Shown piece by piece: positions 29,288-47,424 of a stretch of DNA of 64,000 nt. How positions within the stretch are numbered: the first letter of the stretch is position 1; each line of letters opens with the position of its first letter. Source of the stretch: Candidatus Bilamarchaeaceae archaeon (GTDB lineage Archaea > Micrarchaeota > Micrarchaeia > Anstonellales > Bilamarchaeaceae); assembly GCA_038851325.1 (NCBI GenBank), contig JAWCKZ010000002.1:44935-108934 (forward strand), in the 5' to 3' direction. The position numbers and the translations under genes are program-made. The notes under the pieces are model-generated. The model was not told where the DNA came from and did not search any database. It saw only the letters and a list, made by a program, of their open reading frames with translations.

Positions 29288-30994
29288 TCAGCTGCTCTCT
29301 TCCCACAGCTTCTTTATCAATTTCTTTAGCTCTTCTCGCTTTCTTAGGAATTCCATCTCTTCTTCTTTCGTTAGTCTCATCTGCTCTTTTATATATGCTT
29401 CTTTTTCCTTGATCTCTTCTTTTTCCTTCACCTTTCCCTCACCTATCCTGAGTTCAAGAAGTTTTGCTTGGTGCGAGAGCAGAGTAAGACGCTTGTTCAG
29501 GCCATCTGACATTTCTGAAAGTCGCGAGAGCGAGTTGTTTATCTCATCTAAAAGTTTCTTTTTTTCCTTTATTTCCTTTGCGGCCTCAAGTGCTTTTTTG
29601 AGTTCGCTTTCACCAACTTTCTCTGCGAATTTTTTTGCCTCTTTTTTGATTTCTGTTTCCTGCGCTGCAGCAATCCCCCTCATTCTTTCGAGCTCCTTCT
29701 CTATCTTATCTATTTCGGCATTATATCCTTTAAGCGACGGTACAATACGCTCTTTTATTTGCTGGAATGTGACATATCTGTTTTTATCCTCTTCGAGCGC
29801 TTCTGAAATCTTCAGTGATTCTTCTTTCAACTCTGCAAGTTTATCCTCTATGTTTTTGGCAAGCTCCTCTGCCTCAACTGCTGTGGTTCGTCTTCCGCCA
29901 GCAACTTCGAGCAGCCTTTTTAGCGCGCTCACCTTCTCTTCTATTTCCCTCTCTCGTCTTTCAAGTTCTTTCATTTCTTCATGGAGTTTGGCTTGAGATG
30001 GAAATCTTGTTACTATACCTTTTGCAACTTCCAGAGAATCCGAAAAGCGCTCTATGGTGTCAAAATTCTCCTTTAGTTTTTCATCTACTCTCTTTATGTT
30101 CTCAAAGAGTTTGTCTGCCTCTTTAGTGAGCTCCTTTAATTCTTGTTTAAGCGTTGCGGATGTTTTTTCATATTCTTTTAGAGATCCTCCAACTGCTGAG
30201 ACTATTTCGGCTCCTTCTTTAATGCTTACTATATCCTCCCTAAGTATTGCATTTCTTTTCTTCATCTCGTTGAAATCTCTTACAAGGGAATCAAATTTCT
30301 TGCGCATTTCCGCAGCAGACGGTATCTCAATCCCTGTTGGAACTTCTTCCTTAAGTTTTCTTTTTGTTTCCTTCAGTTCACTCATTAGACCAAAAATCTC
30401 ATTTTGAAGAGTCTTAAACCGCTCAAACGCCTTTTCGCTTTCAGGTTTGGATATCTGTGAGCTTAACGTGCTTACCTCTTTTTGGAGCTCTTTTATTTCA
30501 TTCCTAATTCTGTTTATTTCAGAAACGGCGTTCGACAAGATCTTTAAACTATCATCAAATCTTTTCTCCGAGAGCTCCTTCTCAGCTATAACTGGTGCGA
30601 TATTCCGTTCTATATCGTCCAGACGCTTGTATATTCTTGCGTAAACCTCTGAGAATGATTCTTTAAGTTTTTCGATCTTTTCCATCTCAGGTAAAAGAGC
30701 TTCCCTTGTTTTTTCTATCTCTTTAGTAAGCTCTGCCTTTTCTTTTTCAAACGAGAGACGTTCCTCCTCTATCTGTTCGGCTGCTGGTTGAACCCATACA
30801 AGGTATATCTTGGCAAGTTTATACTCTACACGAATTATTCCTTCTTCCTCAAGAACTCGCGCCCACTCTTCGATGGTGTCAGAAGGAATGTTTAGGGTTG
30901 CAGCGCATTCATCCACTTCTATTTTTCCTTTTTGCTTCACAAGTTTAACGAGAGCATCAACTCCTGTTGTGATCAGTAATTCATCAAATTCCAT
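29288..30994 (-). CDS. N-terminal winged-helix + long coiled-coil protein
   Basis: LITTGVDALVKLVKQKGKIEVDECAATLNIPSDTIEEWARVLEEEGIIRVEY followed by ~490 aa of E/K-rich heptads; no Walker motifs. Confidence 0.75.
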   Translation of the reverse strand: MEFDELLITTGVDALVKLVKQKGKIEVDECAATLNIPSDTIEEWARVLEEEGIIRVEYKLAKIYLVWVQPAAEQIEEERLSFEKEKAELTKEIEKTREALLPEMEKIEKLKESFSEVYARIYKRLDDIERNIAPVIAEKELSEKRFDDSLKILSNAVSEINRIRNEIKELQKEVSTLSSQISKPESEKAFERFKTLQNEIFGLMSELKETKRKLKEEVPTGIEIPSAAEMRKKFDSLVRDFNEMKKRNAILREDIVSIKEGAEIVSAVGGSLKEYEKTSATLKQELKELTKEADKLFENIKRVDEKLKENFDTIERFSDSLEVAKGIVTRFPSQAKLHEEMKELERREREIEEKVSALKRLLEVAGGRRTTAVEAEELAKNIEDKLAELKEESLKISEALEEDKNRYVTFQQIKERIVPSLKGYNAEIDKIEKELERMRGIAAAQETEIKKEAKKFAEKVGESELKKALEAAKEIKEKKKLLDEINNSLSRLSEMSDGLNKRLTLLSHQAKLLELRIGEGKVKEKEEIKEKEAYIKEQMRLTKEEEMEFLRKREELKKLIKKLWEESS

Positions 30995-31047: not shown

Positions 31048-33138
31048 ATGCGATCCCATGCAATACTTTTTCTGGCTTTGATGGCAGGCCTGTTGTCAGC
31101 GTTTGTGCCATCGGATTATTTCTACGCCAACGAGGGAAATGTTACGGTTACATATACTAACTTCACACTCAATGGAACTCATTATTCCATAGTTTATTTT
31201 AATGACCAGGAAACATTTCTTATTAGAGAAGGAGAAATCGTGAATGATAGTGAGATAATAAAAAACGTAGTACGGTCATATTATAGAAGTGCGTTCTTAC
31301 CTTCGGAATCTGAACTTGATGAAATACGCTCTTTGGTAACGGCATACAACGCAAGCAGAAATGACGGCTACGGCTACTACAAAAATAAAGAAGAGTACGA
31401 ATGCAGAGGCGCACTACTAACTGATAAAAGAATAGAGATTTATATTAATGGAACAAGACAAAAATTGTGGTGTCATGACGATGCAAGTTGTGAAATAAAC
31501 GCCATGTTATTGTACCAGGCTTATGGCGAAGGGCTTGGGTGGTCAAGTTACAGAGTGATACTTCAGCCGTTGAAGGATTTCGCATATTCAAGTTACGGCA
31601 CTGACGAAATTTTAGAAAACTTTACACGGATGCTAAACACCGACGATGCAACCGAGCTCTATAACGCTCTTAATTATATGAAGAATTCGATACCAACTTT
31701 GGAGTCTTACGCCACTAAGATAGAATCTACCATCTTTAGGTTGCCTCGTCCGGATGATGCCGCGGACAAAGAAAGTTGCCATTTGATATGCTACTCAATA
31801 TGTCCGCCTTTTGATCTTAATACAACTATCCTTGACAGGCTTGAGACAAGGATAGATAGCATAAAGGCTAAGATACAGCCACTTGCTGAATACAATACCG
31901 TTGCAGAACACATAATCACGAGGACAAATGAGCGGGCGGCGTATAGATATACTTCAATGACAAGATCGCATTATAACAACATCTTTTCTCCTCTCGAGAC
32001 AGAAGGAAGAGAAGTGGAAGAGTATGCTGCAAATGCCTATGGCCTTGTTGGGAATACCTCTTTGATGATAAAGACAGAACAGCTAAAAGCCCTTCGTGAA
32101 TCCATAAGAGGAAAAATAACCAACGCCTCATTTACCGGTTTGGATGACGAGATAAGAATCTATAGAGCGATGCTTTCTTCTGTAAGGGAAGGCGCTGACT
32201 CCACATATTCGCTCTACAACGAGACTATGGATGCTAAGCGGAGAGTGGATGCTGTTCTATTTGAGCTTGGTACGAAAGATCTCTCTGATCCCGACCGAAG
32301 AGAGTACAACGAAATTAGGGAGCATGTTAATGAATTAAATCTTCAGTTTACTAAAGGCATAACGCCTGAAAAGTGTATAGAGTTAAAAAATGGTTACGAT
32401 GCAGCAGAGAAGGATGCGCAGGGCCTTTTGAATAGGGTCACGATGAGTGCTGGGACAACTGCTGTTGATGCCTTTCGAATGTTTTCCATAAGGATGAACA
32501 ACGGAATCGCAGACATCCTTAGGGCGACAAAAATGGCCGAGGTGAAATCAGTACCGCACAACAAGCTTACTTTCTTCGGTGGTTTTAGCATTCTCGTGTT
32601 TATTTCATTTATGTCCATAGCATTTCTTTTGTTCCTGTATTCTGTTGGAGTGAACAGAGACTCGCACCTTAAGTATATTCTAAGCGCTGGCCTTATGTTG
32701 GTCGCTATCCTTGCTGCTGTTTTTTCCGGTTTACTCTATTATTACATGGACAAGACAGCTACCGAAGCTACTATGGATGAGTTTCTTTTTGACCTAAACA
32801 AGAAAAGCACGGTTGCACTGGTAGCCAAGATAGACCTAGCAACTCCAGGGGAAGCCGAAAGCATAAAGCGGTGCATGGGTATAGTGGCAAATACAATCAG
32901 AGAAAAAAACAAGACGGTTGATGTTTATTATTTAGAATCAGGAAATGTTTGTAAAAAGAATAACGCAACCTACGAAAACTGCGCAGCTGATATAGAAAGC
33001 CACAATACCGCAATAATTTTCAGTCCCTCGACCACAGTGGAACCACCAACACTGTCTACGATATTCGTAAGCAAAGCGGAGATAAGAGGGCCAGCAGATT
33101 ATTACGAAACATGCCCGCTTTCAGTTGTCTTTAAATAG
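31048..33138 (+). CDS. Large secreted/membrane protein
   Basis: Signal peptide MRSHAILFLALMAGLLSA; several Cys; two TM helices near aa 510-570. Confidence 0.75.
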   Translation: MRSHAILFLALMAGLLSAFVPSDYFYANEGNVTVTYTNFTLNGTHYSIVYFNDQETFLIREGEIVNDSEIIKNVVRSYYRSAFLPSESELDEIRSLVTAYNASRNDGYGYYKNKEEYECRGALLTDKRIEIYINGTRQKLWCHDDASCEINAMLLYQAYGEGLGWSSYRVILQPLKDFAYSSYGTDEILENFTRMLNTDDATELYNALNYMKNSIPTLESYATKIESTIFRLPRPDDAADKESCHLICYSICPPFDLNTTILDRLETRIDSIKAKIQPLAEYNTVAEHIITRTNERAAYRYTSMTRSHYNNIFSPLETEGREVEEYAANAYGLVGNTSLMIKTEQLKALRESIRGKITNASFTGLDDEIRIYRAMLSSVREGADSTYSLYNETMDAKRRVDAVLFELGTKDLSDPDRREYNEIREHVNELNLQFTKGITPEKCIELKNGYDAAEKDAQGLLNRVTMSAGTTAVDAFRMFSIRMNNGIADILRATKMAEVKSVPHNKLTFFGGFSILVFISFMSIAFLLFLYSVGVNRDSHLKYILSAGLMLVAILAAVFSGLLYYYMDKTATEATMDEFLFDLNKKSTVALVAKIDLATPGEAESIKRCMGIVANTIREKNKTVDVYYLESGNVCKKNNATYENCAADIESHNTAIIFSPSTTVEPPTLSTIFVSKAEIRGPADYYETCPLSVVFK

Positions 33139-36567: not shown

Positions 36568-37455
36568 ATGCTAGATGCACCTCCCAAAAGCGAGAGACAA
36601 CTTATTTTGGAGGCAGCAGTGGAGGTCATCAAAAAACAAGGACTTAGATCGGAATTGATAGGGAGCAAGAAATTTTCAGAATACTTTTTTAAGGGTGTTA
36701 TGCTATTCAATGTTCTTGGTGACGGATGCACAAGAAACTGCAGGTTCTGCGTTATAAAGTACAAAAAAAAGCCTGATAAGCCTTCGCTTGATGAAGGAAA
36801 AAGAATAGCCGCTGTTTCTCAAAAACTTGGATTAAGGTATATTGTTCTTTCGCCCGTAGCAAGGGACGACCTTGCAGATGGCGGTGCATCCTACCTTGCA
36901 TCCTACATAAGAGATATAAAAAAGATAAATCCGAATGTGAAGGTTGAGACGTTTATTCCAGATTACGGTAAAAAACACCTTATAAAAATGGTGGTCGACG
37001 CTGGGCCAGACGTAATATCATACAGTCTAGACACGATCAAGCGGCTATATTCTGTCGTGAAGGGAAGCGAGTTTGATTTTGAGAGGAGCATAAGGACAGT
37101 CCGCACGATTAGAGAGTTGAGCAAGGACATACCCATCAGGGCAACCATAATGGTTGGGTTTAGAGAAAGTTGGTTTGAGGTAATAGGCGCATTAAGACGA
37201 TTGCGTAAGGCGGGCGTGGATATGATAACGATAAGCCAATACTATAGGCCAACAAAGAACCATATTCAGGTTCTTGAGTATGTACCGGTGGAAAGGTTCG
37301 AGTTGTATGAAAGAGAGGCATATCAACTTGGTTATAAACATGTTAAGATTCAATCTGGCAAGCCTATTGAGTATAGCGATTATATCCTACCAGAATTTAT
37401 TTCTTCTGTACAACGAAAGCCTCTAGGACCTTTTCGTAAGGAGCATCAGTTTTAA
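36568..37455 (+). CDS. Lipoyl synthase (LipA)-like radical SAM protein lacking auxiliary cluster motifs
   Basis: LGDGCTRNCRFC, VARDDLADGGA, VETFIPDY, ITISQYYRP; no CX4CX5C and no RSSY. Confidence 0.85.
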   Translation: MLDAPPKSERQLILEAAVEVIKKQGLRSELIGSKKFSEYFFKGVMLFNVLGDGCTRNCRFCVIKYKKKPDKPSLDEGKRIAAVSQKLGLRYIVLSPVARDDLADGGASYLASYIRDIKKINPNVKVETFIPDYGKKHLIKMVVDAGPDVISYSLDTIKRLYSVVKGSEFDFERSIRTVRTIRELSKDIPIRATIMVGFRESWFEVIGALRRLRKAGVDMITISQYYRPTKNHIQVLEYVPVERFELYEREAYQLGYKHVKIQSGKPIEYSDYILPEFISSVQRKPLGPFRKEHQF

Positions 37456-38485
37456 CAGCAGTTGGAGAAAAATGGGTTCTTGCGGCTTTGTAGCCAATCG
37501 AATTTAAGAAATCAAGAACATCGTTCATCTTCGGCACGCTTCCTCGCGAAATAAACTTTGAGATTCTATGAAGATCATAAAAATATGGTGGCATCCCAAT
37601 CTCTTGTTCCATAAGCTCTAATTTATTATGTATCTCTTCTCTGTGACCGTACCCTCTCTTTTCATTTAATTTTTTCATTTCTCTGAGAATATTTATATCG
37701 TGGAGCTCTCCGAGCCAAAGCGGTCCTGCGTACTCAATATTTTTATTGCAGACCTTGCACCACTCCGTTGGAAAGCGCACTGCTCTCCTGAAGCCACAAT
37801 GTGGGCAGTACTCGACATAACCAAGACGTGCAAGCGCGTTGTTTGCTTTCTCTGCCCCCCTTGTTACCTTTACTACAGTTTTTAAATAATGTCTATCAGA
37901 GATCGAAAGAAGAGGTATCGTTCCCATGTTAAATTCGGCACCTACTTCGGCTATCTTTTTTATCAAAATCCTGAGACCGTTTTCGTGCGTGCATTCATTG
38001 TTCAGCGGCTTTGCATGATAGTTTTTCATACACGGCTTTGTTTTTCCGCCGCACAGAACAGCAGTGTCTGTTGCTGTGACTGAAAGATATCCCTGCTTAA
38101 GGGGATTAAAGATTCTGAAAACATCATAGAGATACGGAGATGGTGTCCCAAACGGGTCAACCTCGACAAAATCAGCGGTTATGTCGAAAACAAGTCTTGA
38201 GATGTTCCCATGGAGTACAGAGAATTTTATTTTGTTTTTCCTTGCATTTTTTCTTGCACATGCCACGGCCGCTTTATTCACATCAACAAATATAGTGCGC
38301 CTTACATTATCATTTTCGATGGCATATCGTATGCCCCGTATGCCAGTTGCTGCAAATCCGTCGCACACAATGATTTTTTCCGCCAATGCACCGATCAAAA
38401 GCGAAACAATGCTGCGACAGAACGTCATTTCTTTATTGTAAAAAACCCCCTTCGGTGCGTTAAACACCACTCCCTCCTCCATCAT
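37397..38485 (-). CDS. trm1: tRNA (guanine26-N2)-dimethyltransferase
   Basis: VFYNKEM, DGFAATGIRGIRY, VDPFGTPSPY, TATDTAVLCG, YAGPLWLG, RTHFSP. Confidence 0.95.
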   Translation of the reverse strand: MMEEGVVFNAPKGVFYNKEMTFCRSIVSLLIGALAEKIIVCDGFAATGIRGIRYAIENDNVRRTIFVDVNKAAVACARKNARKNKIKFSVLHGNISRLVFDITADFVEVDPFGTPSPYLYDVFRIFNPLKQGYLSVTATDTAVLCGGKTKPCMKNYHAKPLNNECTHENGLRILIKKIAEVGAEFNMGTIPLLSISDRHYLKTVVKVTRGAEKANNALARLGYVEYCPHCGFRRAVRFPTEWCKVCNKNIEYAGPLWLGELHDINILREMKKLNEKRGYGHREEIHNKLELMEQEIGMPPYFYDLHRISKFISRGSVPKMNDVLDFLNSIGYKAARTHFSPTAVKTDAPYEKVLEAFVVQKK

Positions 38486-39707
38486 TTTTATCCCTATCCA
38501 AAAATTCTCTAAGAGCCGCGGTTGCATAGGCCCCTGATTGGAGCGAGAATGTGAATGTGTTGTTATAAAATGAGAAGTCTTTTAATGGTGAGAGCAGCGT
38601 ACGGTGTGTTCCTTTTGAGGATATCTCTGGTATGGCCTTTATTTTGAAATCACGCGGTTTTATATCAAACATCTCAAGAATTCTTTTTTCACGCTCGTTC
38701 ACCTTTGTTTCATACCCTATCATCTTTCCTGCAATCCATCTTGAATGACTTTCCTGCTTCTTTATGTCAGGAAAGCCACCCGTCTCTCCGCAATAGTATT
38801 CTCCTTCTTCGAGTTTGTTGAGCGCTCCTTCAGCAATTCTTTCTGATAGGGCAAGGTTGAAGATGTGCGACTGGAATGCGTGAACGAACAAAAGAAGGAT
38901 GCGTCTCGGTAGTTTTCTAAGAGCACCAGCATAGTCCCTTGGATAGACAGCAAGATGTGTAAGAAGCGCTCTCTCAAGGTGCAAATACTTTGGAAACTCC
39001 TTAAGTGCTTTCTTAAAGTCCCCTGTTTCTCGTAGATTTTTTCTTGCTAATATTGCTAGTTCGTTTGTTTCCCCTTTGCATTCACAGAGAAATTCAAGTG
39101 CCGCCAAATCGTGCCTCCCCTTTGCAAGGTACTCTCCGAGTTTGTGAGTATTTCGCCTGCTTGAACCAAACCTTTGAGGCCCAAAATAGTTAGGGAAGAC
39201 GCCATTCAATTCTTTATAAATCACTTCCACAGCGTTTTTTTCGTTAGGATTCTGTCCATGTACAACTATCTTGAAACGGTTTCCCAGAAGACTGCCCAAT
39301 CTCGTTTTATCAGATGAGCTCCACGCGCCGAGTATCTTTATATCCTTGAGATTAAGCGAGAGCAATTTCTCCTTGCTAATTCCGAAAACAGAAACAAGTT
39401 GAGTAGAAATAGCATTCTTATCCTTCGTACCTGCATAACTGAATCGCTTTGCACTGATGCGAAGTTCATCCGCTATTCTCCTTATTGCCCCCTCGCTTGT
39501 CCATTCCCTCTTTTGAAGTATGAAATGCGTGAAATTTCCTTCTGTCCCAGCGCGTGTGAAGGTCTTGTCCTTCTCCAGTATTGTTCCGTCTTCAAGTATT
39601 TCCTCAACTATGAAATCATCCGGTGTTTTCTTTATTCTTCCACCAATTCCAGGGGTCTTTGAAAGGTAAGAAAGAAAATGGTCTTTCTCTGGCAAATCCT
39701 CACTCAT
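38460..39707 (-). CDS. truD: tRNA pseudouridine13 synthase
   Basis: DDFIVEEI, SYAGTKDKNAISTQ, LLGNRF, PNYFGPQRFG, GAYAT. Confidence 0.96.
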   Translation of the reverse strand: MSEDLPEKDHFLSYLSKTPGIGGRIKKTPDDFIVEEILEDGTILEKDKTFTRAGTEGNFTHFILQKREWTSEGAIRRIADELRISAKRFSYAGTKDKNAISTQLVSVFGISKEKLLSLNLKDIKILGAWSSSDKTRLGSLLGNRFKIVVHGQNPNEKNAVEVIYKELNGVFPNYFGPQRFGSSRRNTHKLGEYLAKGRHDLAALEFLCECKGETNELAILARKNLRETGDFKKALKEFPKYLHLERALLTHLAVYPRDYAGALRKLPRRILLLFVHAFQSHIFNLALSERIAEGALNKLEEGEYYCGETGGFPDIKKQESHSRWIAGKMIGYETKVNEREKRILEMFDIKPRDFKIKAIPEISSKGTHRTLLSPLKDFSFYNNTFTFSLQSGAYATAALREFLDRDKNDGGGSGV

Positions 39708-39825: not shown

Positions 39826-41226
39826 CTATGACCCCATTTTTTCTGTCTTTGTTTTTCTGTCTTTGTTGCGGACCATGTGGATGATCGATTTATAAGACTG
39901 GAAGAGTGAATTAACAAGGGTTTGATTTCCGCCCAGATAGTAATGATGCGCCGCACCCCCCTCCTCAGCTATCTGATGCCACTCCTTTGTTTTCAGCTGC
40001 ACTTCAAATCGCAGCAATCTCGAGGTGAGAACATCCTCGGGTTCGGTGTCGTAATGGAACGCCTTATAACCATTTTCAGGTTTGACTTTGAACTCTGGAG
40101 TGCATTTTTTGTAAAGCACGCCAGGGGTTGTATTTAGTCCGCATAAATTTGATTCTATTACTGCCTTTGCCAATTCCAGAGCTCTCCCCTTTGCGTCTTC
40201 TTCCATCTTGTCTACCTCAATCCCATGTAGTTTGTTGATGATAACGCGGAGCGCTACAAGGTCATTAAGTTTTGCAATGTCGTAGTATTGAATAATCGAT
40301 CTTATATATTTGTTTAGTTTTTCTTCATTTTCCTCAGAACTCTCGTTATGACCAACATGTAGACGCTTAAACTCATCCACCAATCTTCTATATATCTTGC
40401 GCATTATTTTCCCTTCATGTTTTTTCATTCTTGGTGCAACAATCGCATCTGTGAAGCCTTGGACTCTTAACGTTTGCCTGATCCGTCTTGCAAGATCTTT
40501 GACAATGTTTTGCGTTGTATGCAGGCGTTCCGTAAGCCCGGTTTCATTCATTTTTTCCATTACATATTCGTATATCTCTCTGTGGTTTATCTTAAATGCG
40601 TGGAGAAGAATATCTCCTGCTAGGGATGGATATCCAAAAAATTCTGCCAGCGGGGCGTAGATTTTCTCCCCTGCTGTTGCGTCCCTTTTTAGAGAGTTTT
40701 CTGCATCCGATTGAGAATCGTAAAGCCTGAATATAGAACAACCATTGTTGTTAATGACATCATTTGTTCTTTGGCTTGTTGTGTGCGTGACAGCGACATC
40801 AACTATTCGCGGCAGCAAAGCCAATGGAGCTGGTTTGTTATCATTAAGTAAAGGAATATAACTCTCCAGCGGAGCACCAGCGCGATCAAGATTTCTCAAC
40901 TGACAGAATATTCTGAGTTCGTCGACTATTGCTCTTTCTTCTAGCATTTGAAGGATGGAAGGGTCCAAGCATTTAACCTTATCATAATCTATCATGTGAT
41001 AAAGTACAATCTCTGTAATCCGGTGATTCAGTTCAGCCCTTTCTGGATCTTTTTTGTAGTGTTTTATTGCACTTCCATTCACCATCTTTACTTCTTCAGC
41101 CTTTTTCATGACTTCAAGGCAGTGTTGGTAGAGCTGCATAGCATTTTTTTTGAAATAAAAATTCCTAGCTGTTAGTATACTGGATTGAAGGGATGGTAAT
41201 TTTTTTCTAGTTCGTATAAATTCCAT
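39826..41226 (-). CDS. RelA/SpoT homologue: degenerate HD domain + synthetase domain, no C-terminal regulatory domains
   Basis: KIYAPLAEFFG, PRMKKH...RK, NDLVALRVII, KPENGYKAFH, FEVQLKTKEWHQIAEEGGAAHHYY. Confidence 0.85.
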   Translation of the reverse strand: MEFIRTRKKLPSLQSSILTARNFYFKKNAMQLYQHCLEVMKKAEEVKMVNGSAIKHYKKDPERAELNHRITEIVLYHMIDYDKVKCLDPSILQMLEERAIVDELRIFCQLRNLDRAGAPLESYIPLLNDNKPAPLALLPRIVDVAVTHTTSQRTNDVINNNGCSIFRLYDSQSDAENSLKRDATAGEKIYAPLAEFFGYPSLAGDILLHAFKINHREIYEYVMEKMNETGLTERLHTTQNIVKDLARRIRQTLRVQGFTDAIVAPRMKKHEGKIMRKIYRRLVDEFKRLHVGHNESSEENEEKLNKYIRSIIQYYDIAKLNDLVALRVIINKLHGIEVDKMEEDAKGRALELAKAVIESNLCGLNTTPGVLYKKCTPEFKVKPENGYKAFHYDTEPEDVLTSRLLRFEVQLKTKEWHQIAEEGGAAHHYYLGGNQTLVNSLFQSYKSIIHMVRNKDRKTKTEKMGS

Positions 41227-41283
41227 AATGATACATCGTTTAAAACATTTTAAAAAGATATCGGAATGTGCTGCGAAAGAGTA

Positions 41284-42264
41284 TTAATAGATAATACAAC
41301 GCGCAGCCTTTAATTGCTCTATATTCCTACTTCCTGTGAGAAAGGCAGCTATGGCAAGTTGTTTTTTCCATTTCTCAATTTCTTCTTCAAGACATTTTTT
41401 TGTGAGGGCGATAAGAAACGGTTGTGCAGCGCCCCCCATCTCCGCACCAAGCGCTATTGCCTTTGCAACGTCTACTCCGCTTCTTACTCCGCCGCTGGCA
41501 ATAAGCGGTAGAATTCCTTTACACATAAGAATGGAGTCTACAGTTTTTATCCCCCAATTTTCAAATCCCGGCACTCCTCCTTTTCGCATGTACTCTATTT
41601 TACTCCACGAAGTTCCTCCAGCGCCAGAAACATCCAACCATGAAACGCCGACACCCTTAAGCTTCTCTGCTACCTCTGTGCTCATTCCGGCTCCTGTTTC
41701 CTTTGCAATAACAGGCACGCCAATTCTTTCTACTGTCTTTTCTATTGCTGCCAGGATACCTGAAAAATCGGTATCCCCTTCTGGTTGGATGACTTCTTGC
41801 AGAGGATTTAGGTGAATAGCGAGAGCGTCTGCCTCAACGGATGCTACGAGTGATTCTATCTTCTCTATTGGGTATTTATTCAATTGGGCTGCCCCTATAT
41901 TTGCGAGTAGAGGTATATCAGGCGCGACATCTCGCACTTTAAATGTATCCGCAGTGGCTGGATTCTCTATCATAGCGCGCTGCGAACCAAGTCCAAAGGC
42001 TATGCCTGCATTCTGCGCAGCAGCAGCAAGCATCCTGTTTATTTTTTTTGCCTTTGGATAGCCGCCGGTCAACGCGCATATCAAAAGAGGCGCGGATATT
42101 TTTTTACCTAAAAAATCTGTTGAAAGATCAACATCAGACAATGCGCATTCCGGCAAGGAATTGTGGATTAGCAGAATGCGCTCAAAACCTGCGGAAAAGG
42201 AATACTGGCTCTCTTTTTTTATGGAAAGAGCGATATGGTCTTGTTTTCTCTTATAGATGCTCAC
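41284..42264 (-). CDS. fni: Type 2 isopentenyl-diphosphate delta-isomerase
   Basis: RKQDHI, ALTGG, GLGSQRA, LANIG, IHLNPLQEVIQPEGD, AKETGAG, DVSGAGGTSW. Confidence 0.96.
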   Translation of the reverse strand: MSIYKRKQDHIALSIKKESQYSFSAGFERILLIHNSLPECALSDVDLSTDFLGKKISAPLLICALTGGYPKAKKINRMLAAAAQNAGIAFGLGSQRAMIENPATADTFKVRDVAPDIPLLANIGAAQLNKYPIEKIESLVASVEADALAIHLNPLQEVIQPEGDTDFSGILAAIEKTVERIGVPVIAKETGAGMSTEVAEKLKGVGVSWLDVSGAGGTSWSKIEYMRKGGVPGFENWGIKTVDSILMCKGILPLIASGGVRSGVDVAKAIALGAEMGGAAQPFLIALTKKCLEEEIEKWKKQLAIAAFLTGSRNIEQLKAARCIIY

Positions 42265-42303
42265 AAATTCACCCGTTCGTGTCAACAATTTTACTCTATG
42301 ATC

Positions 42304-43041
42304 TCACCTTGCCAACGGATACTTTTCCATGTACATCTGAGTCTGGAGAATAATGAGAAATGGAAGAAGAACGATCGAGTTGACCAGCAAAGCAAAGTAC
42401 TGCGAAAATACCCCCGAGAATAGAAAATCGCCCGATATCTTTGAAAGCACCAAAGTTAACGCGCCAATGGCCAGCCAGGAGATACAAAGGAGCGGTTTTC
42501 GTAGTGCAAGATCACCTGAGCGAATGATCGCGGTTCCTACATCTGAATCGTCTATAACAATGGCCGGGGGAACGAATAACAGGAGATAAGAAAGGACAAA
42601 GGAAAATAGAGGGTAGATGACTGTTTGGCCATAGATATCGTGAAGAAGCAATTGTGCTATGAGGTGAAGTATAAATACAATAGTAAGAACGCAGAATATC
42701 CTTGTTGCATGCTTCGGGACTGCCGAAATCATCTCCTGCGTTGTTTCGGTTAGAGTACGTTTTGAGCGTACTATTATATTGATGTTCACAATCGTATCAG
42801 CTATTATAAACATTGCTATTAGATACGCAATGACGATTATGGATATGTCAAGAATGGAGAAATCCGGAAGGCTTCCTGTTCTTGCAAATAGTGCCCCTGC
42901 TGCTAGATAGGTGGGTAGAGGAACAAGCACGGGAACGAGAGACGCAGCAAAGAATGGAATAGAAAAGAGAGCCAGAAGTGCTATCTTCTTAAAGTAAAAT
43001 TCCAGAGAATACGCAACAACCCTGTTCAATTCTTCCATCAT
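42304..43041 (-). CDS. Hypothetical multi-pass membrane protein
   Basis: Six or more hydrophobic segments. Confidence 0.7.
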   Translation of the reverse strand: MMEELNRVVAYSLEFYFKKIALLALFSIPFFAASLVPVLVPLPTYLAAGALFARTGSLPDFSILDISIIVIAYLIAMFIIADTIVNINIIVRSKRTLTETTQEMISAVPKHATRIFCVLTIVFILHLIAQLLLHDIYGQTVIYPLFSFVLSYLLLFVPPAIVIDDSDVGTAIIRSGDLALRKPLLCISWLAIGALTLVLSKISGDFLFSGVFSQYFALLVNSIVLLPFLIILQTQMYMEKYPLAR

Positions 43042-45834: not shown

Positions 45835-47424
45835 ATGAATGACCAAAAAAAGATTGGAGAGAAATTCGTAGTCTTACAGGGCGGTGGTAAGAACAGGAAA
45901 AATTTATTCGATGGAGAGCTACCTGTTGTGGAAACAAGGCCGGATAACGAAGTCAACAAAATGCTCATAAGTGCTGTGCAGAATTTGGATGCAGATATGG
46001 TGGAGAGGGCACTGAAGGCAGGCGCGTATCCAGGGCTTATAGATTCAGATGGAAATACGTTACTTCATTTTTCTGGATATGAAGGTAATTATAAAATTTC
46101 AAAACTGCTTATCGATTACGCTTTGGCTAGAAAGATTGATATCATTAACGTACATAATAAACAGAACAAGACGCCGATGGACATGGTGCTGGATGGTCGA
46201 AGACCTGATTCCGAAGGACATGCTAAGGTCTTCGCACTTCTGAGAATAAATAAAGGAAAGTGGTTTAACCCTGAAATTCTTTCTCACATAGGAAATTTTG
46301 AAGAGACTAAACGAGTAATCGAGCGTATAGGAAGAGCTGCCATGTCGAGCGAATTGATAATGGCTGCTGCAGCGCTTGATATTGATTACGCAAAAAAACT
46401 CCTCAGATGTGGTGCTAGTATTTTTTTTAATGATACGGCGACCACCGAGATCTACACTTCTCCGCTTGCTGTTATCATAGGCAAAGCGCTTGAGAGCGGT
46501 CTTACCGATGAGATAGTAAATGCTGCCAAACTTTTTGTTGACTGGAACGCCAAGCTTAACGCCCCATTTATACCAGATTTAAACAACCCATATTTTAAGG
46601 TTACATTGATTGAGATGCAAGCAGCAGATGGCATTCCGCATGACATACGGGGTCTCCTGAAGGATCTTTATGATAAGCAGCTTGCGAACGAACAGCTTTT
46701 TGTTGCTGCGGATGAGAATGATAGGTATCGGGGCGAAAGTGCGATAAGAAAAGGCGCAAGCGTGGACGCGCGGGACGAATTTTTCGGTACTTCACTTCAC
46801 ACTGCTCTGGCCAAGGCGCATCTTGATTTTGCAGAGTTTATTGTCGAGCTCAATACCGATTTAACAGCTGTAGATAGCATTGGCTCTACCCTAATTCATG
46901 CTGCTGCTTATTCGAAAGATCCTAGTGCGCTCACGCTTATAATAAGCGCTATGAGAAATGCAGGTATCGAGCCTGACCTTGATGCCAAGGACGATTTGGG
47001 GAATGCGCCAATACATGTCGCGGTTTTTAGAAGAGGGTATGAAATGGTAGAGGCGCTGGGAAAGGCAGGTGCTGACTTAAACGTGCGAAGCGATTCTGGT
47101 GAAACACCCCTTCACACTGCAGTCATGATGGATGATCCAGATATGGGCGGTTTGCTTTTGAATCTCGGAGCAGAGATTACAGAGGATGTTATTAAATTTG
47201 CAGAGGAGAGAGGCAGGGATGACATAGCAGATGCGCTAATGAAAATAAGAGAAAAACAGAAAGCAGCAGAGTCTCTTCATACTGCAATTAAAAATGAAGA
47301 GCATGGCGCAACGCTACCTGCAAAGAACGAAGAAAAAACTAAAGATGGGCCAGAGGAGGCAGGTAGAAAACTGCCCAACAACGTTGTGCCATTTCCTAAC
47401 CTCGAGCGCAAAGGCAAATCCTGA
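45835..47424 (+). CDS. Ankyrin-repeat protein
   Basis: GNTLLH, NKTPMD, GTSLHTA, GSTLIHAA, GNAPIHVA, GETPLHTA repeats. Confidence 0.9.
   Translation: MNDQKKIGEKFVVLQGGGKNRKNLFDGELPVVETRPDNEVNKMLISAVQNLDADMVERALKAGAYPGLIDSDGNTLLHFSGYEGNYKISKLLIDYALARKIDIINVHNKQNKTPMDMVLDGRRPDSEGHAKVFALLRINKGKWFNPEILSHIGNFEETKRVIERIGRAAMSSELIMAAAALDIDYAKKLLRCGASIFFNDTATTEIYTSPLAVIIGKALESGLTDEIVNAAKLFVDWNAKLNAPFIPDLNNPYFKVTLIEMQAADGIPHDIRGLLKDLYDKQLANEQLFVAADENDRYRGESAIRKGASVDARDEFFGTSLHTALAKAHLDFAEFIVELNTDLTAVDSIGSTLIHAAAYSKDPSALTLIISAMRNAGIEPDLDAKDDLGNAPIHVAVFRRGYEMVEALGKAGADLNVRSDSGETPLHTAVMMDDPDMGGLLLNLGAEITEDVIKFAEERGRDDIADALMKIREKQKAAESLHTAIKNEEHGATLPAKNEEKTKDGPEEAGRKLPNNVVPFPNLERKGKS

Follow-up and report, generated by a model that had tools for sequence, protein, structure and literature searches.

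Do archaea make alarmones? Archaeal use of (p)ppGpp is a long-standing question. No (p)ppGpp was found in Haloferax volcanii and Sulfolobus acidocaldarius (PMC8646023), and a reference survey of RelA/SpoT homologues (RSHs) found sporadic single-domain members in archaea but no long RSHs (PMC3153485). A concrete candidate for a direct test is a 466-aa protein encoded in the stretch of DNA analysed here (64 kb, hereafter the window), whose host is a tiny symbiotic DPANN archaeon of the Micrarchaeia, family Bilamarchaeaceae. Judging from its sequence, this protein is probably a catalytically competent RSH pyrophosphokinase from a divergent family that descended from long (Rel-like) RSHs and whose named members are nearly all Micrarchaeota; it would act independently of the ribosome, most likely as a (p)ppGpp synthetase and not as a toxSAS.

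How surprising is such a gene in an archaeon? The homologue announced in the preliminary description is real, but because RelA/SpoT genes have already been reported in other DPANN phyla, its novelty is tempered: an annotation-based survey (Li et al. 2021) put their frequency at 69% in Diapherotrites, 42% in Woesearchaeota, 21% in Pacearchaeota, and 19% in Nanoarchaeota, with a predicted bacterial origin (PMC8407392). That survey was the only literature we found on Micrarchaeota with ppGpp, RelA, or SpoT. Compared by description, its genes also have DPANN hosts; Micrarchaeota, however, are absent from its list, and its genes were annotated as RelA/SpoT, whereas most deposited members of the window family carry the name "hypothetical protein."

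The gene, its host, and its kinship to known RSH classes

The gene and its parts, as read from the sequence and an AlphaFold (AF2) model, are as follows:

39826..41226 (-), RSH-family coding sequence, 466 aa, ATG start, stop codon at 39826-39828 (open reading frame list; Pfam RelA_SpoT above cut-off)
40717..41226 (-), predicted N-terminal HD-like (pseudo-hydrolase) domain, aa 1-170 (AF2 all-helical, Foldseek, hhalign)
40462..40716 (-), central helix bundle, aa 171-255, with KIYAPLAEFFG (model helices 172-196, 200-214, 216-226, and 229-255)
39928..40461 (-), synthetase (RelA_SpoT nucleotidyltransferase) domain, aa 256-433 (Pfam PF04607, hhalign residue mapping, invariance over 50 members)
39829..39927 (-), C-terminal helix, aa 434-466 (model helix 435-463, of lower confidence; Y445 conserved)

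All motif strings quoted in the preliminary description are found in this reading frame: LYQHCLEVM (aa 32-40), VLYHMID (74-80), KIYAPLAEFFG (188-198), PRMKKHEGKIMRK (265-277), NDLVALRVII (321-330), KPENGYKAFH (382-391), and FEVQLKTKEWHQIAEEGGAAHHYY (407-430). The start codon is supported by the N termini of homologues and by a conserved promoter block directly upstream. Identical or near-identical proteins are deposited from "Candidatus Bilamarchaeaceae archaeon" metagenome-assembled genomes (MAGs), and the neighbouring genes are archaeal core genes, in keeping with the DPANN host first suggested. One deposited protein (P0159), on a 135.9-kb contig, is identical to the window RSH, another (P0001) differs by one residue, and the same protein is present in several independent MAGs.

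Two checks proposed at the outset, an HMM search and a structure prediction, both returned an RSH. Pfam RelA_SpoT (PF04607) matched aa 316-431 above its curated threshold (33.7 bits vs. a gathering cut-off of 27, E=4.9e-8) and also matched 48 of 50 family members (best 8.7e-18); Pfam HD_4 had no match in the 466-aa protein, and the NCBIfam matches (spoT_relA and GTP-diphosphokinase) were sub-threshold. The AF2 model (pLDDT 82.5, pTM 0.82) matched both catalytic domains of long Rel/RelA/SpoT in Foldseek, where the best 24 matches were all long-RSH catalytic regions with ~390-490 columns aligned. Alignments to the N-terminal halves of Rel span both domains, with a TM-target of up to 0.68, and the helix bundle aligns to RelSeq 165-258 and RelA 159-266.

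Profile comparisons gave the same ranking of classes. Against the PDB, the family profile matched E. coli RelA at 1.7e-20 and B. subtilis Rel at 8.9e-19, with E ranges of 1e-20 to 1e-11 for long RSHs, 1e-8 to 6e-5 for SAS, and 1.3e-3 for CapRel; aligned profile to profile with long-RSH N-terminal halves (hhalign), it reached E=2.2e-42. By fold, too, SAS score far below long RSHs (1.7e-3 and weaker), and CapRel is the weakest match among the RSH classes (0.027). Identity to solved RSH structures is 13-17%. The protein is thus built like the N-terminal half of a long RSH, as had been proposed, with an HD-like domain, helix bundle, and synthetase recognised through Pfam, Foldseek, and hhalign.

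With the long RSHs (Rel of S. equisimilis, T. thermophilus, B. subtilis, and M. tuberculosis; E. coli RelA and SpoT), the window protein has domain order, fold, and synthetase catalytic residues in common, and like RelA it has a hydrolase half that is devoid of the HD dyad, which makes the window protein an [hS] enzyme. It differs from them in having no TGS, helical, ZFD, or ACT domains and no RxKD/ExDD, in carrying two insertions in the synthetase and one of 18 residues in the HD-like domain, in keeping three Mn-ligand positions, and in its archaeal host. A similar build has been described for long RSHs that are truncated in nature, rickRel[hS] among them, which combine a very divergent HD domain with a synthetase and have no C-terminal domains (PMC3153485); the likeness is by description, and these enzymes are bacterial (Rickettsiales and others). 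RelP and RelQ (SAS) share the synthetase fold, the catalytic residues, and the absence of ribosome-sensing domains, but they are single-domain tetramers of ~200 aa and match only the C-terminal half of the window protein, in which a conserved 255-aa stretch of HD-like domain and helix bundle lies ahead of the synthetase.

The synthetase active site and its acceptor

Does the synthetase domain retain what catalysis requires? By hhalign, R266, K269, K277, D322, R327, Y387, H391, E408, and Q410 align to RelSeq R241, K243, K251, D264, R269, Y308, H312, E323, and Q325, respectively. Across 50 family members that are only 20-48% identical, R266, K269, G272, K277, D322, E408, A426, and H427 occur in every one, Y387 in 49, and H391 in 46. 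From the RelSeq alignment, R266, K269, and K277 would bind the ATP phosphates, D322 would hold Mg2+, Y387 would stack on the acceptor base, and E408 would serve as the catalytic Glu. The synthetase set that the preliminary description had judged to be present is therefore complete, each of these positions being invariant or conserved in 49/50 members. R327 and Q410 vary across the wider family (R28/K12/T8 and Q36/I12, respectively), the residue next after the stacking Tyr is K/R where Q is usual, and two family-specific insertions interrupt the domain at ~aa 283-315 and ~333-347. Replacement of the RxKD/ExDD segment, also described earlier, was borne out: the aligned position reads YKKC, and the element is not conserved in the family.

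Which acceptor would such a site use? According to a published rule, SxH/AVR/IR signatures mark guanosine-type and GxN/RYT/YH adenosine-type synthetases (PMC12226406). By sequence, the syn2 (A325-L-R327), syn3 (A389-x-H391; family A21/S20), and syn4 (L411-K412) signatures of the 466-aa protein match the guanosine-type enzymes and not the adenosine-type ones. These signatures correlate with base specificity, yet swapping them experimentally did not convert it (PMC12226406), so the acceptor cannot be read from sequence.

An active pyrophosphokinase that modifies an adenine nucleotide, making (pp)pApp like Tas1, FaRel, and Apk2, or that uses another non-guanine small molecule has precedent, since a change of acceptor is known among divergent RSH synthetases (bioRxiv 10.1101/2021.04.30.441581; PMC12226406). 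The distance of this family from characterised (p)ppGpp synthetases, evident in the low identity to solved structures, would suit such a switch, as would the K/R after the stacking Tyr and the missing RxKD/ExDD. We nevertheless consider it unlikely. The syn2/syn3/syn4 signatures are not those of adenosine-type enzymes, the nearest relatives in both sequence and fold are housekeeping long RSHs, and Tas1, FaRel, and Apk2 are toxins accompanied by immunity or antitoxin genes or by secretion domains, none of which is present here.

The HD-like domain and the longer relatives

Is the N-terminal half a dead hydrolase? Its likeness to HD domains comes from predicted structure: an HMM of the Rel HD domain did not detect the N-terminal domain of the family, and the domain alone, compared with a Rel HD profile, gave E=0.011 in the same register as the global alignment. 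In that global hhalign alignment, H35, H77, and D143 fall on Rel Mn ligands. The preliminary description held that the hydrolase looks dead, and in one respect this stands: the canonical dyads are gone, position 78 (the HD aspartate) being Met here and Asp in 0/50 members, and the ED dyad being lost in the window protein and unconserved across the 50. Because position 78 is never Asp and the ED dyad is unconserved, the domain falls into class [h], not [H]. It is not simply dead, however, as three of the four Mn-ligand positions (H35, H77, and D143) are essentially invariant in the family. The N-terminal domain, which carries an 18-residue insertion relative to long RSHs, is conserved about as strongly as the synthetase domain.

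At the other end, the C-terminal helix stands where long RSHs have their TGS/helical/ZFD/ACT region. Pfam detected no TGS, ZFD, or ACT domain, and the protein ends in one helix in the model, as the reported absence of these domains implied. Longer family forms (515-584 aa) exist, which run on into a predicted beta-grasp domain at the place of this helix. In one of them (P0063, 562 aa), the modelled C-terminal beta-grasp and helices best match TGS-containing full-length Rel, SpoT, and RelA. Neither a TGS HMM nor hhalign detected TGS in the C-terminal extension of the long forms, and the extension is TGS-like by predicted structure. Because longer relatives appear to keep a TGS-like domain, the family would descend from long RSHs. 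RshC[HS], which is cut just after TGS (PMC3153485), parallels these 515-584-aa forms. Another protein (P0174, 501 aa, HD+SYNTH+TGS) was considered as a possible DPANN Rel and set aside, its context looking bacterial (SecDF, RecJ, and a bacterial-type CCA enzyme).

Genomic context and the proposed function

Is the gene a native resident, and does its neighbourhood resemble that of a toxin? The flanking features in the window are:

38460-39707 (-), TruD (Pfam TruD, 4e-109)
41227..41263 (-), promoter-proximal block CGATATCTTTTTAAAATGTTTTA...ATG, conserved upstream of six orthologues
41284-42288 (-), fni-like FMN-dependent gene (Pfam FMN_dh)
42304-43041, 245-aa membrane protein, forming with fni an upstream syntenic pair (41284..43041, -); context only

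The gene was first described as sitting alone between truD and fni. The flanking genes are right, but it is not alone: a survey of the neighbourhood in 13 contexts, one of the checks originally proposed, revealed a conserved housekeeping backbone, with fni, a membrane protein, TruD, and AsnC/GlnA or RLI as neighbours, and the order membrane protein-fni-RSH recurs in 8/13 (the window and L003, L006, L008, L010, L014, L016, and L017). The same gene order was recovered in independent NCBI, JGI, and ENA assemblies. GC content is uniform along the window, and the RSH gene (GC 0.405, GC3 0.396, codon cosine 0.94) lies inside the range of its neighbours. The RSH gene is a stable, native chromosomal resident and is probably inherited vertically. 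A downstream convergent membrane protein of 227-237 aa was considered as a partner and rejected; it is absent from the window and non-adjacent in several loci. Scanning all 64 kb with Rfam and for tRNAs returned no matches.

The upstream block is probably a promoter. It is shared by six orthologues whose protein identity is only 43-48%, sequence farther upstream is unconserved, and the block occurs once in the window against 0 occurrences expected by chance. Since its TATA-like element (TTTTTAAAA, 41248-41256) lies 22-30 nt before the RSH ATG, the gene would form its own transcription unit with a leaderless or near-leaderless mRNA.

An alternative raised in the preliminary description was a toxSAS/CapRel-like enzyme with the pseudo-hydrolase as a regulatory domain. 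Spelled out, the HD-like domain would be a sensor or built-in antitoxin within a defence or toxin-antitoxin system. The hallmarks of toxSAS and CapRel systems are a conserved operon of two or three genes that includes an antitoxin, or an antitoxin fused on as a C-terminal pseudo-ZFD, frequent residence on mobile elements, toxicity upon expression, and pyrophosphorylation of tRNA CCA ends; the C terminus of the window protein is a single helix. Like toxSAS (CapRel, FaRel2, and PhRel) and the (pp)pApp toxins Tas1 and Apk2, the window protein has a divergent synthetase with Tyr, Asp, and Glu intact and no long-RSH, ribosome-sensing CTD, and access to the active site could be controlled by a fused domain without catalytic function, which is the part played by the pseudo-ZFD of CapRel. 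RSH also diverges much more quickly than the neighbouring fni (50% vs. 87% identity between L006 and L008), and tandem divergent RSH paralogues occur at two loci. The genomic evidence nonetheless runs against this idea and makes it quite improbable. In the 13 contexts neither a small partner gene that is conserved nor a bicistron with overlapping genes was seen, and no immunity or secretion gene near RSH; PADLOC had no match; and no relatives were found in phage, viral, or plasmid collections. CapRel, as noted, is the weakest class match, the syn signatures are of guanosine type, and the gene is single-copy, of host-like composition, and set in a conserved housekeeping backbone with no mobile association.

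Might the scaffold instead be kept for a structural or binding role, such as nucleotide sensing, with catalysis lost? A hydrolase half clearly devoid of canonical dyads, the large family-specific insertions in the synthetase domain, and the failure to detect an alarmone in the archaeal model organisms tested would all accommodate a pseudoenzyme. We regard this as highly unlikely, because the pyrophosphoryl-transfer residues are invariant or nearly so in 50 highly divergent members, which is unexpected after loss of catalysis. The idea that the gene reflects a chimeric assembly, contamination, or bacterial DNA inserted very recently deserves almost no credence: the window does come from a MAG, RSH genes are typically bacterial, and surveyed DPANN copies were predicted to be bacterial in origin (PMC8407392), but composition and codon usage are native, gene order repeats in independent assemblies, a 135.9-kb contig encodes the identical protein, and the named family members are all archaeal, all but one of them Micrarchaeota/Bilamarchaeaceae.

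Of the two functions originally put forward, archaeal alarmone synthase is the better supported. How might such a synthetase work? It would move the beta-gamma pyrophosphate from ATP onto the 3'-OH of GDP or GTP, giving (p)ppGpp. In long RSHs the CTD autoinhibits synthetase activity (PMC6606846); lacking this autoinhibitory, ribosome-sensing region, the enzyme should work independently of the ribosome, like an N-terminal fragment of RelA. Control would be exerted by transcription and possibly also by the HD-like domain, whose H-H-D triad may still bind a metal or ligand, and the product would be an intracellular signal rather than a toxin.

Some features were counted against the synthetase reading: the variable R327 and Q410, the unconserved RxKD/ExDD, and the fast evolution of RSH relative to fni. 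So were the lack of any (p)ppGpp hydrolase candidate within the 64-kb window and the protein's own HD site, devoid of the HD Asp and the ED dyad.

A broader proposal, which we advance tentatively as possible rather than probable, is that Micrarchaeota have an alarmone system of their own that arose from a long RSH and is inherited vertically, with TGS-like long forms and ribosome-independent short forms whose product in the cell would be (p)ppGpp or a closely similar 3'-pyrophosphorylated analogue. The remodelled HD site (invariant His-His-Asp, no HD aspartate) might then gate synthesis, either by sensing a metal or ligand or as a non-canonical hydrolase. If true, alarmone signalling would be demonstrated in Archaea for the first time. 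A natural RSH consisting of the N-terminal half only, with a partial metal site, also bears on how pseudo-HD domains regulate synthetases.

How extensive is the family? An exhaustive profile search yielded at least ~75 clusters at 50% identity, a size visible by that approach only; a word-indexed homologue search gave 9 clusters, and reruns with the 50-member alignment or P0063 added almost nothing. A genome-collection scan with a 9-member alignment matched 2 GTDB species representatives and 9 metagenome loci, few because the scan needs near-exact peptide patterns, and these are not prevalence estimates. In a neighbour-joining tree of bundle and synthetase, distances reached saturation, bootstrap support for the core clade was 33%, and the family as a whole was not recovered. 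This is a sizeable micrarchaeal family whose synthetase active site is under strong selection and whose chromosomal synteny is conserved, and its short, long, and tandem paralogues form a series in which the reduction of long RSHs in streamlined genomes can be studied.

Identity and fold of the RelA/SpoT homologue

Is the resemblance of the 466-aa window protein to RelA/SpoT enzymes real? The gene and its immediate neighbors are as follows.

39826..41226, minus strand: RelA/SpoT homologue (RSH)-family coding sequence, ATG start, 466 aa (ORF list)
38460-39707, minus strand: TruD, downstream of the RSH gene (Pfam, 4e-109)
41284-42288, minus strand: fni-like FMN-dependent gene, upstream of the RSH gene (Pfam)

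All motifs quoted in the preliminary description were found in the protein, in the order stated there, and the flanking genes it named, TruD downstream and an fni-like gene upstream, were borne out. The protein exceeds the curated Pfam cutoff for RelA_SpoT (33.7 bits vs. 27, spanning aa 316-431), the only family matched in a Pfam scan of it; the NCBIfam matches, to spoT_relA and GTP-diphosphokinase, are both sub-threshold. A single-sequence PDB search recovered the catalytic fragment of Streptococcus equisimilis Rel (RelSeq; 1vj7, E 1.9e-4), aligned in two places, one being the helix bundle and the other the EVQLKT...AAH segment. The resemblance is therefore real, and chance can be set aside.

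AlphaFold, given nine sequences, produced a confident model (pLDDT 82.5, pTM 0.82) with four parts.

aa 1-170: N-terminal all-helical domain
aa 172-255: helix bundle
aa 262-421: alpha/beta domain
aa 435-463: final helix

The top 24 Foldseek matches in the PDB are all catalytic regions of long RSHs (RelSeq; Thermus thermophilus, Staphylococcus aureus, Mycobacterium tuberculosis, and Bacillus subtilis Rel; RelA; SpoT). Their alignments span about 390-490 columns and reach a TM-target of 0.68; therefore, both domains of the protein match long RSHs. RelP and RelQ follow (E 1.7e-3 and weaker), with CapRel last (E 0.027). Sequence comparison with a profile of the family ranks these enzymes in the same order: RelA at 1.7e-20, Rel at 1e-18 to 1e-13, small alarmone synthetases (SAS) at 1e-8 to 6e-5, and CapRel at 1.3e-3. 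The window protein has the RSH fold, without the C-terminal sensor domains.

Synthetase and HD-like domains

Residues were mapped by global profile-profile alignment of the family with the N-terminal halves of nine long RSHs (E 2e-42).

Synthetase residues of the window protein, RelSeq equivalents, and roles
R266, K269, K277; RelSeq R241, K243, K251; ATP phosphates
D322; RelSeq D264; Mg2+
R327; RelSeq R269
Y387; RelSeq Y308; acceptor stacking
H391; RelSeq H312
E408; RelSeq E323; catalytic Glu
Q410; RelSeq Q325

The synthetase site is intact and under selection. Across 50 full-length members (20-48% identity to the window protein), R266, K269, G272, K277, D322, E408, A426, and H427 are invariant, and Y387 (49/50), G386 (48/50), and H391 (46/50) nearly so—the pattern to be expected of an active enzyme rather than a pseudoenzyme. 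The alignment also revealed two family-specific insertions (about aa 283-315 and 333-347), and YKKC at the position of the RxKD/ExDD element, which is unconserved in the family.

In the N-terminal domain, H35 aligns with the first Mn-ligand His of long RSHs, H77 and M78 with the His and Asp of the HD dyad, Y81/D82 with the ED dyad, and D143 with the last Mn-ligand Asp. Because this domain alone matches a Rel HD profile weakly (E 0.011, register unchanged) and Pfam HD_4 is silent on the window protein and the family, its putative assignment as HD rests mainly on the predicted fold. The domain and the synthetase are conserved to a similar degree: among the 50 members, H35 is kept in 49, H77 in all, and D143 in 49, with Asp at position 78 in none. 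Canonical hydrolase chemistry has most likely been lost; yet, whereas the HD site of RelA has decayed, the H35/H77/D143 site is not decaying likewise.

Which nucleotide might accept the pyrophosphate? Guanosine 3'-pyrophosphokinases carry SxH (syn3), AVR (syn2), and IR (syn4), and adenosine ones carry GxN, RYT, and YH (PMC12226406). The corresponding motifs in the window protein, A389-x-H391 (A in 21 and S in 20 family members), A325-L-R327, and L411-K412, all belong to the guanosine type. Swapping such motifs leaves specificity unconverted (PMC12226406), and the signature is thus a pointer, not proof.

Distribution and genomic context of the family

How widespread is this protein? A word-indexed homologue search returned only nine clusters (41-47% identity, 425-459 aa), all RelA_SpoT-positive, and an exhaustive profile search gave 725 matches at E<1e-3, with 77 below 1e-10 and 45 below 1e-30. 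Proteins of 411-707 aa matched full-length down to about 60 bits; under this, long proteins, one named example being from a diatom, matched in the synthetase half only. Named family members belong to Candidatus Micrarchaeota or Bilamarchaeaceae, the sole exception being a MAG called 'Ca. ainarchaeum' by its submitter. Most are annotated as hypothetical; JGI or NCBI labels a few as proteins of ppGpp synthetase type. One database homologue (P0159, on a 135.9-kb contig) is identical to the window protein and another (P0001) differs by one residue; the latter and two further cluster members were deposited as 'hypothetical protein' from Candidatus Bilamarchaeaceae archaeon MAGs. Bilamarchaeaceae is placed in the order Anstonellales of Micrarchaeia, a DPANN lineage.

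The RSH gene is a native chromosomal gene. The window contains archaeal core genes (SBDS, NAC, ribosomal proteins S3Ae and S15, aEF-2, Trm1, and TruD) and is even in GC throughout. GC (0.405), GC3 (0.396), and codon usage (cosine 0.94 vs. 15 other genes) of the RSH gene are inside its neighbors' range, and none of these measures points to an insertion there, whether chimeric or recent and foreign.

We compared 13 contexts, the window and 12 loci from NCBI, JGI, and ENA. The order 245-aa membrane protein-fni-RSH occurs in 8, window included; in the four remaining full contexts (L001, L009, L012, and L013, representing two distinct loci), RLI (ABCE1) lies ahead of the RSH gene. Identity between the window and its relatives is 43-48% for RSH, compared with fni at 63-66% and the membrane protein at 49-51%: the RSH gene is a fast-evolving yet stable resident. 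A convergent, conserved membrane protein of 227-237 aa lies directly downstream of RSH in seven loci and further downstream in two more, with no homologue in the window. A convergent AsnC/Lrp-type regulator followed by a glutamine synthetase gene lies downstream in 5 of the 13. In two loci (L010:4296-5630 and L016:3495-4829), a second, very divergent RSH paralogue stands in tandem between fni and the RSH orthologue; it may be regulatory or neofunctionalized.

Several minor features accompany these genes. The 245-aa membrane protein (42304-43041, minus strand), which matches nothing in Pfam or PADLOC, always precedes fni in the trio, with a 15-nt gap, and is probably cotranscribed with it. The 227-237-aa protein (L001:7374-8087, L003:3411-4103, L008:4463-5155, L009:7394-8077, and L006:7716-8411) is multi-pass, without a Pfam family, and more conserved than RSH (62-90% identity between genomes). 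AsnC/Lrp-type regulators are amino-acid-responsive, and the pairing with glutamine synthetase (L006:5775-7705, L010:7126-9140, also L014, L016, and L017; neither gene is in the window) may point to a connection with nitrogen or amino-acid status. The tandem paralogue (444 aa, about 22% identity to the window protein) retains the Mg Asp, stacking Tyr, His, and catalytic Glu, with changes at R327 (to T), Q410 (to I), and the RxxKH segment.

Two tRNA modification genes, TruD and Trm1, lie directly downstream of the RSH gene and are likely cotranscribed. The Trm1 ORF as listed (37397-38527, minus strand) overlaps the truD 3' end by 68 nt; its true start is probably an internal Met, since the Pfam match begins only at aa 14. 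Elsewhere in the window, a 529-aa protein (45835-47424, plus strand) carries several ankyrin repeats (aa about 354-449), unusual in an archaeon and possibly relevant to a symbiont's host interaction, and two ORFs, 31048-33138 (plus strand, 696 aa) and 29288-30994 (minus strand, 568 aa), lack a significant Pfam family, the sole trace in the latter being a sub-threshold ATG17-like match.

Could the protein instead be a toxin or defense enzyme, the toxSAS/CapRel-like alternative raised in the preliminary description? PADLOC gave no match on this question, no relative of the family was found in IMG/VR, GenBank phages, or PLSDB plasmids, and CapRel is the weakest RSH match in both fold and profile searches. 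By definition, toxSAS loci have a bicistronic signature (PMC7229694), which the window gene lacks. A toxin or defense role is therefore improbable. The 13 contexts share no small conserved partner gene, and a search of the window found one family member only and no Rel-type HD protein.

Origin, proposed activity, and control

An archaeal alarmone synthase of long-RSH descent is the reading we favor. Family members of 515-584 aa contain an additional stretch of some 120 aa. The model of one, P0063 (562 aa, Ca. Micrarchaeota; m66b266ccab50), is confident (pLDDT 85) and ends, at aa 455-561, in a beta-beta-alpha-beta-beta (beta-grasp) unit and two helices. In a structure search it is matched best by full-length, TGS-containing enzymes, namely B. 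subtilis Rel (E 6e-12, 562 columns), SpoT, and RelA, with N-terminal-half-only structures ranking below; sequence profiles for TGS detected nothing on P0063. The model suggests that the long forms harbor a cryptic TGS domain and are archaeal long RSHs; the family thus appears to be a progressively reduced long RSH, with the window protein as the shortest form. Atkinson's definition of a long RSH calls for HD and SYNTH domains and leaves the CTD optional (PMC3153485); the window protein accordingly falls among long RSHs, as type [hS], combining a degenerate hydrolase with an intact synthetase. Among described RSHs, the nearest in architecture are rickRel[hS] for the window protein and RshC for the long forms.

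The enzyme would pyrophosphorylate GDP/GTP at the 3' position at the expense of ATP, yielding (p)ppGpp. The N-terminal fragment of RelA is constitutively active, and bacterial alarmone targets common to archaea include translational GTPases and purine enzymes. Because the CTD, autoinhibitory in long RSHs (PMC6606846), is missing, activity would not depend on sensing of the ribosome or of tRNA. Control would be exerted through transcription and possibly also the HD-like domain.

RSH enzymes as such are already well known. A 2011 survey reported sporadic SAS and SAH in archaea and described long RSHs as lacking there (PMC3153485); a 2021 survey listed RelA/SpoT annotations in four other DPANN phyla, Micrarchaeota not among them (PMC8407392), and these earlier DPANN reports temper the novelty of the family. 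Of the archaeal model organisms, two have been examined for (p)ppGpp, which was detected in neither (PMC8646023). Our literature search found no paper on the present Micrarchaeota family. What is new here is the [hS] subfamily itself, undescribed until now: it has distinctive insertions, keeps part of the metal site, and comprises short, long, and tandem paralogues. With it, the question of archaeal alarmone signaling becomes directly testable.

A block of about 37 nt abutting the ATG (41227-41263, minus strand) is conserved in six orthologues, and conservation stops further upstream. Its consensus is CGATAnCTTTAAATAATGTTTTA..., the window version has TTTTTAAAA 22-30 nt ahead of the ATG, and it occurs once in the window vs. 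0 expected. From position and sequence, we infer that the block is the gene's own BRE/TATA promoter, giving a leaderless or near-leaderless transcript. Equivalents occur at L001, L003, L006, L008, and L009, despite RSH protein identities of just 43-48%. Downstream of the TATA-like element and ahead of the start, TGTTTTA is invariant and could be an operator, not just promoter sequence.
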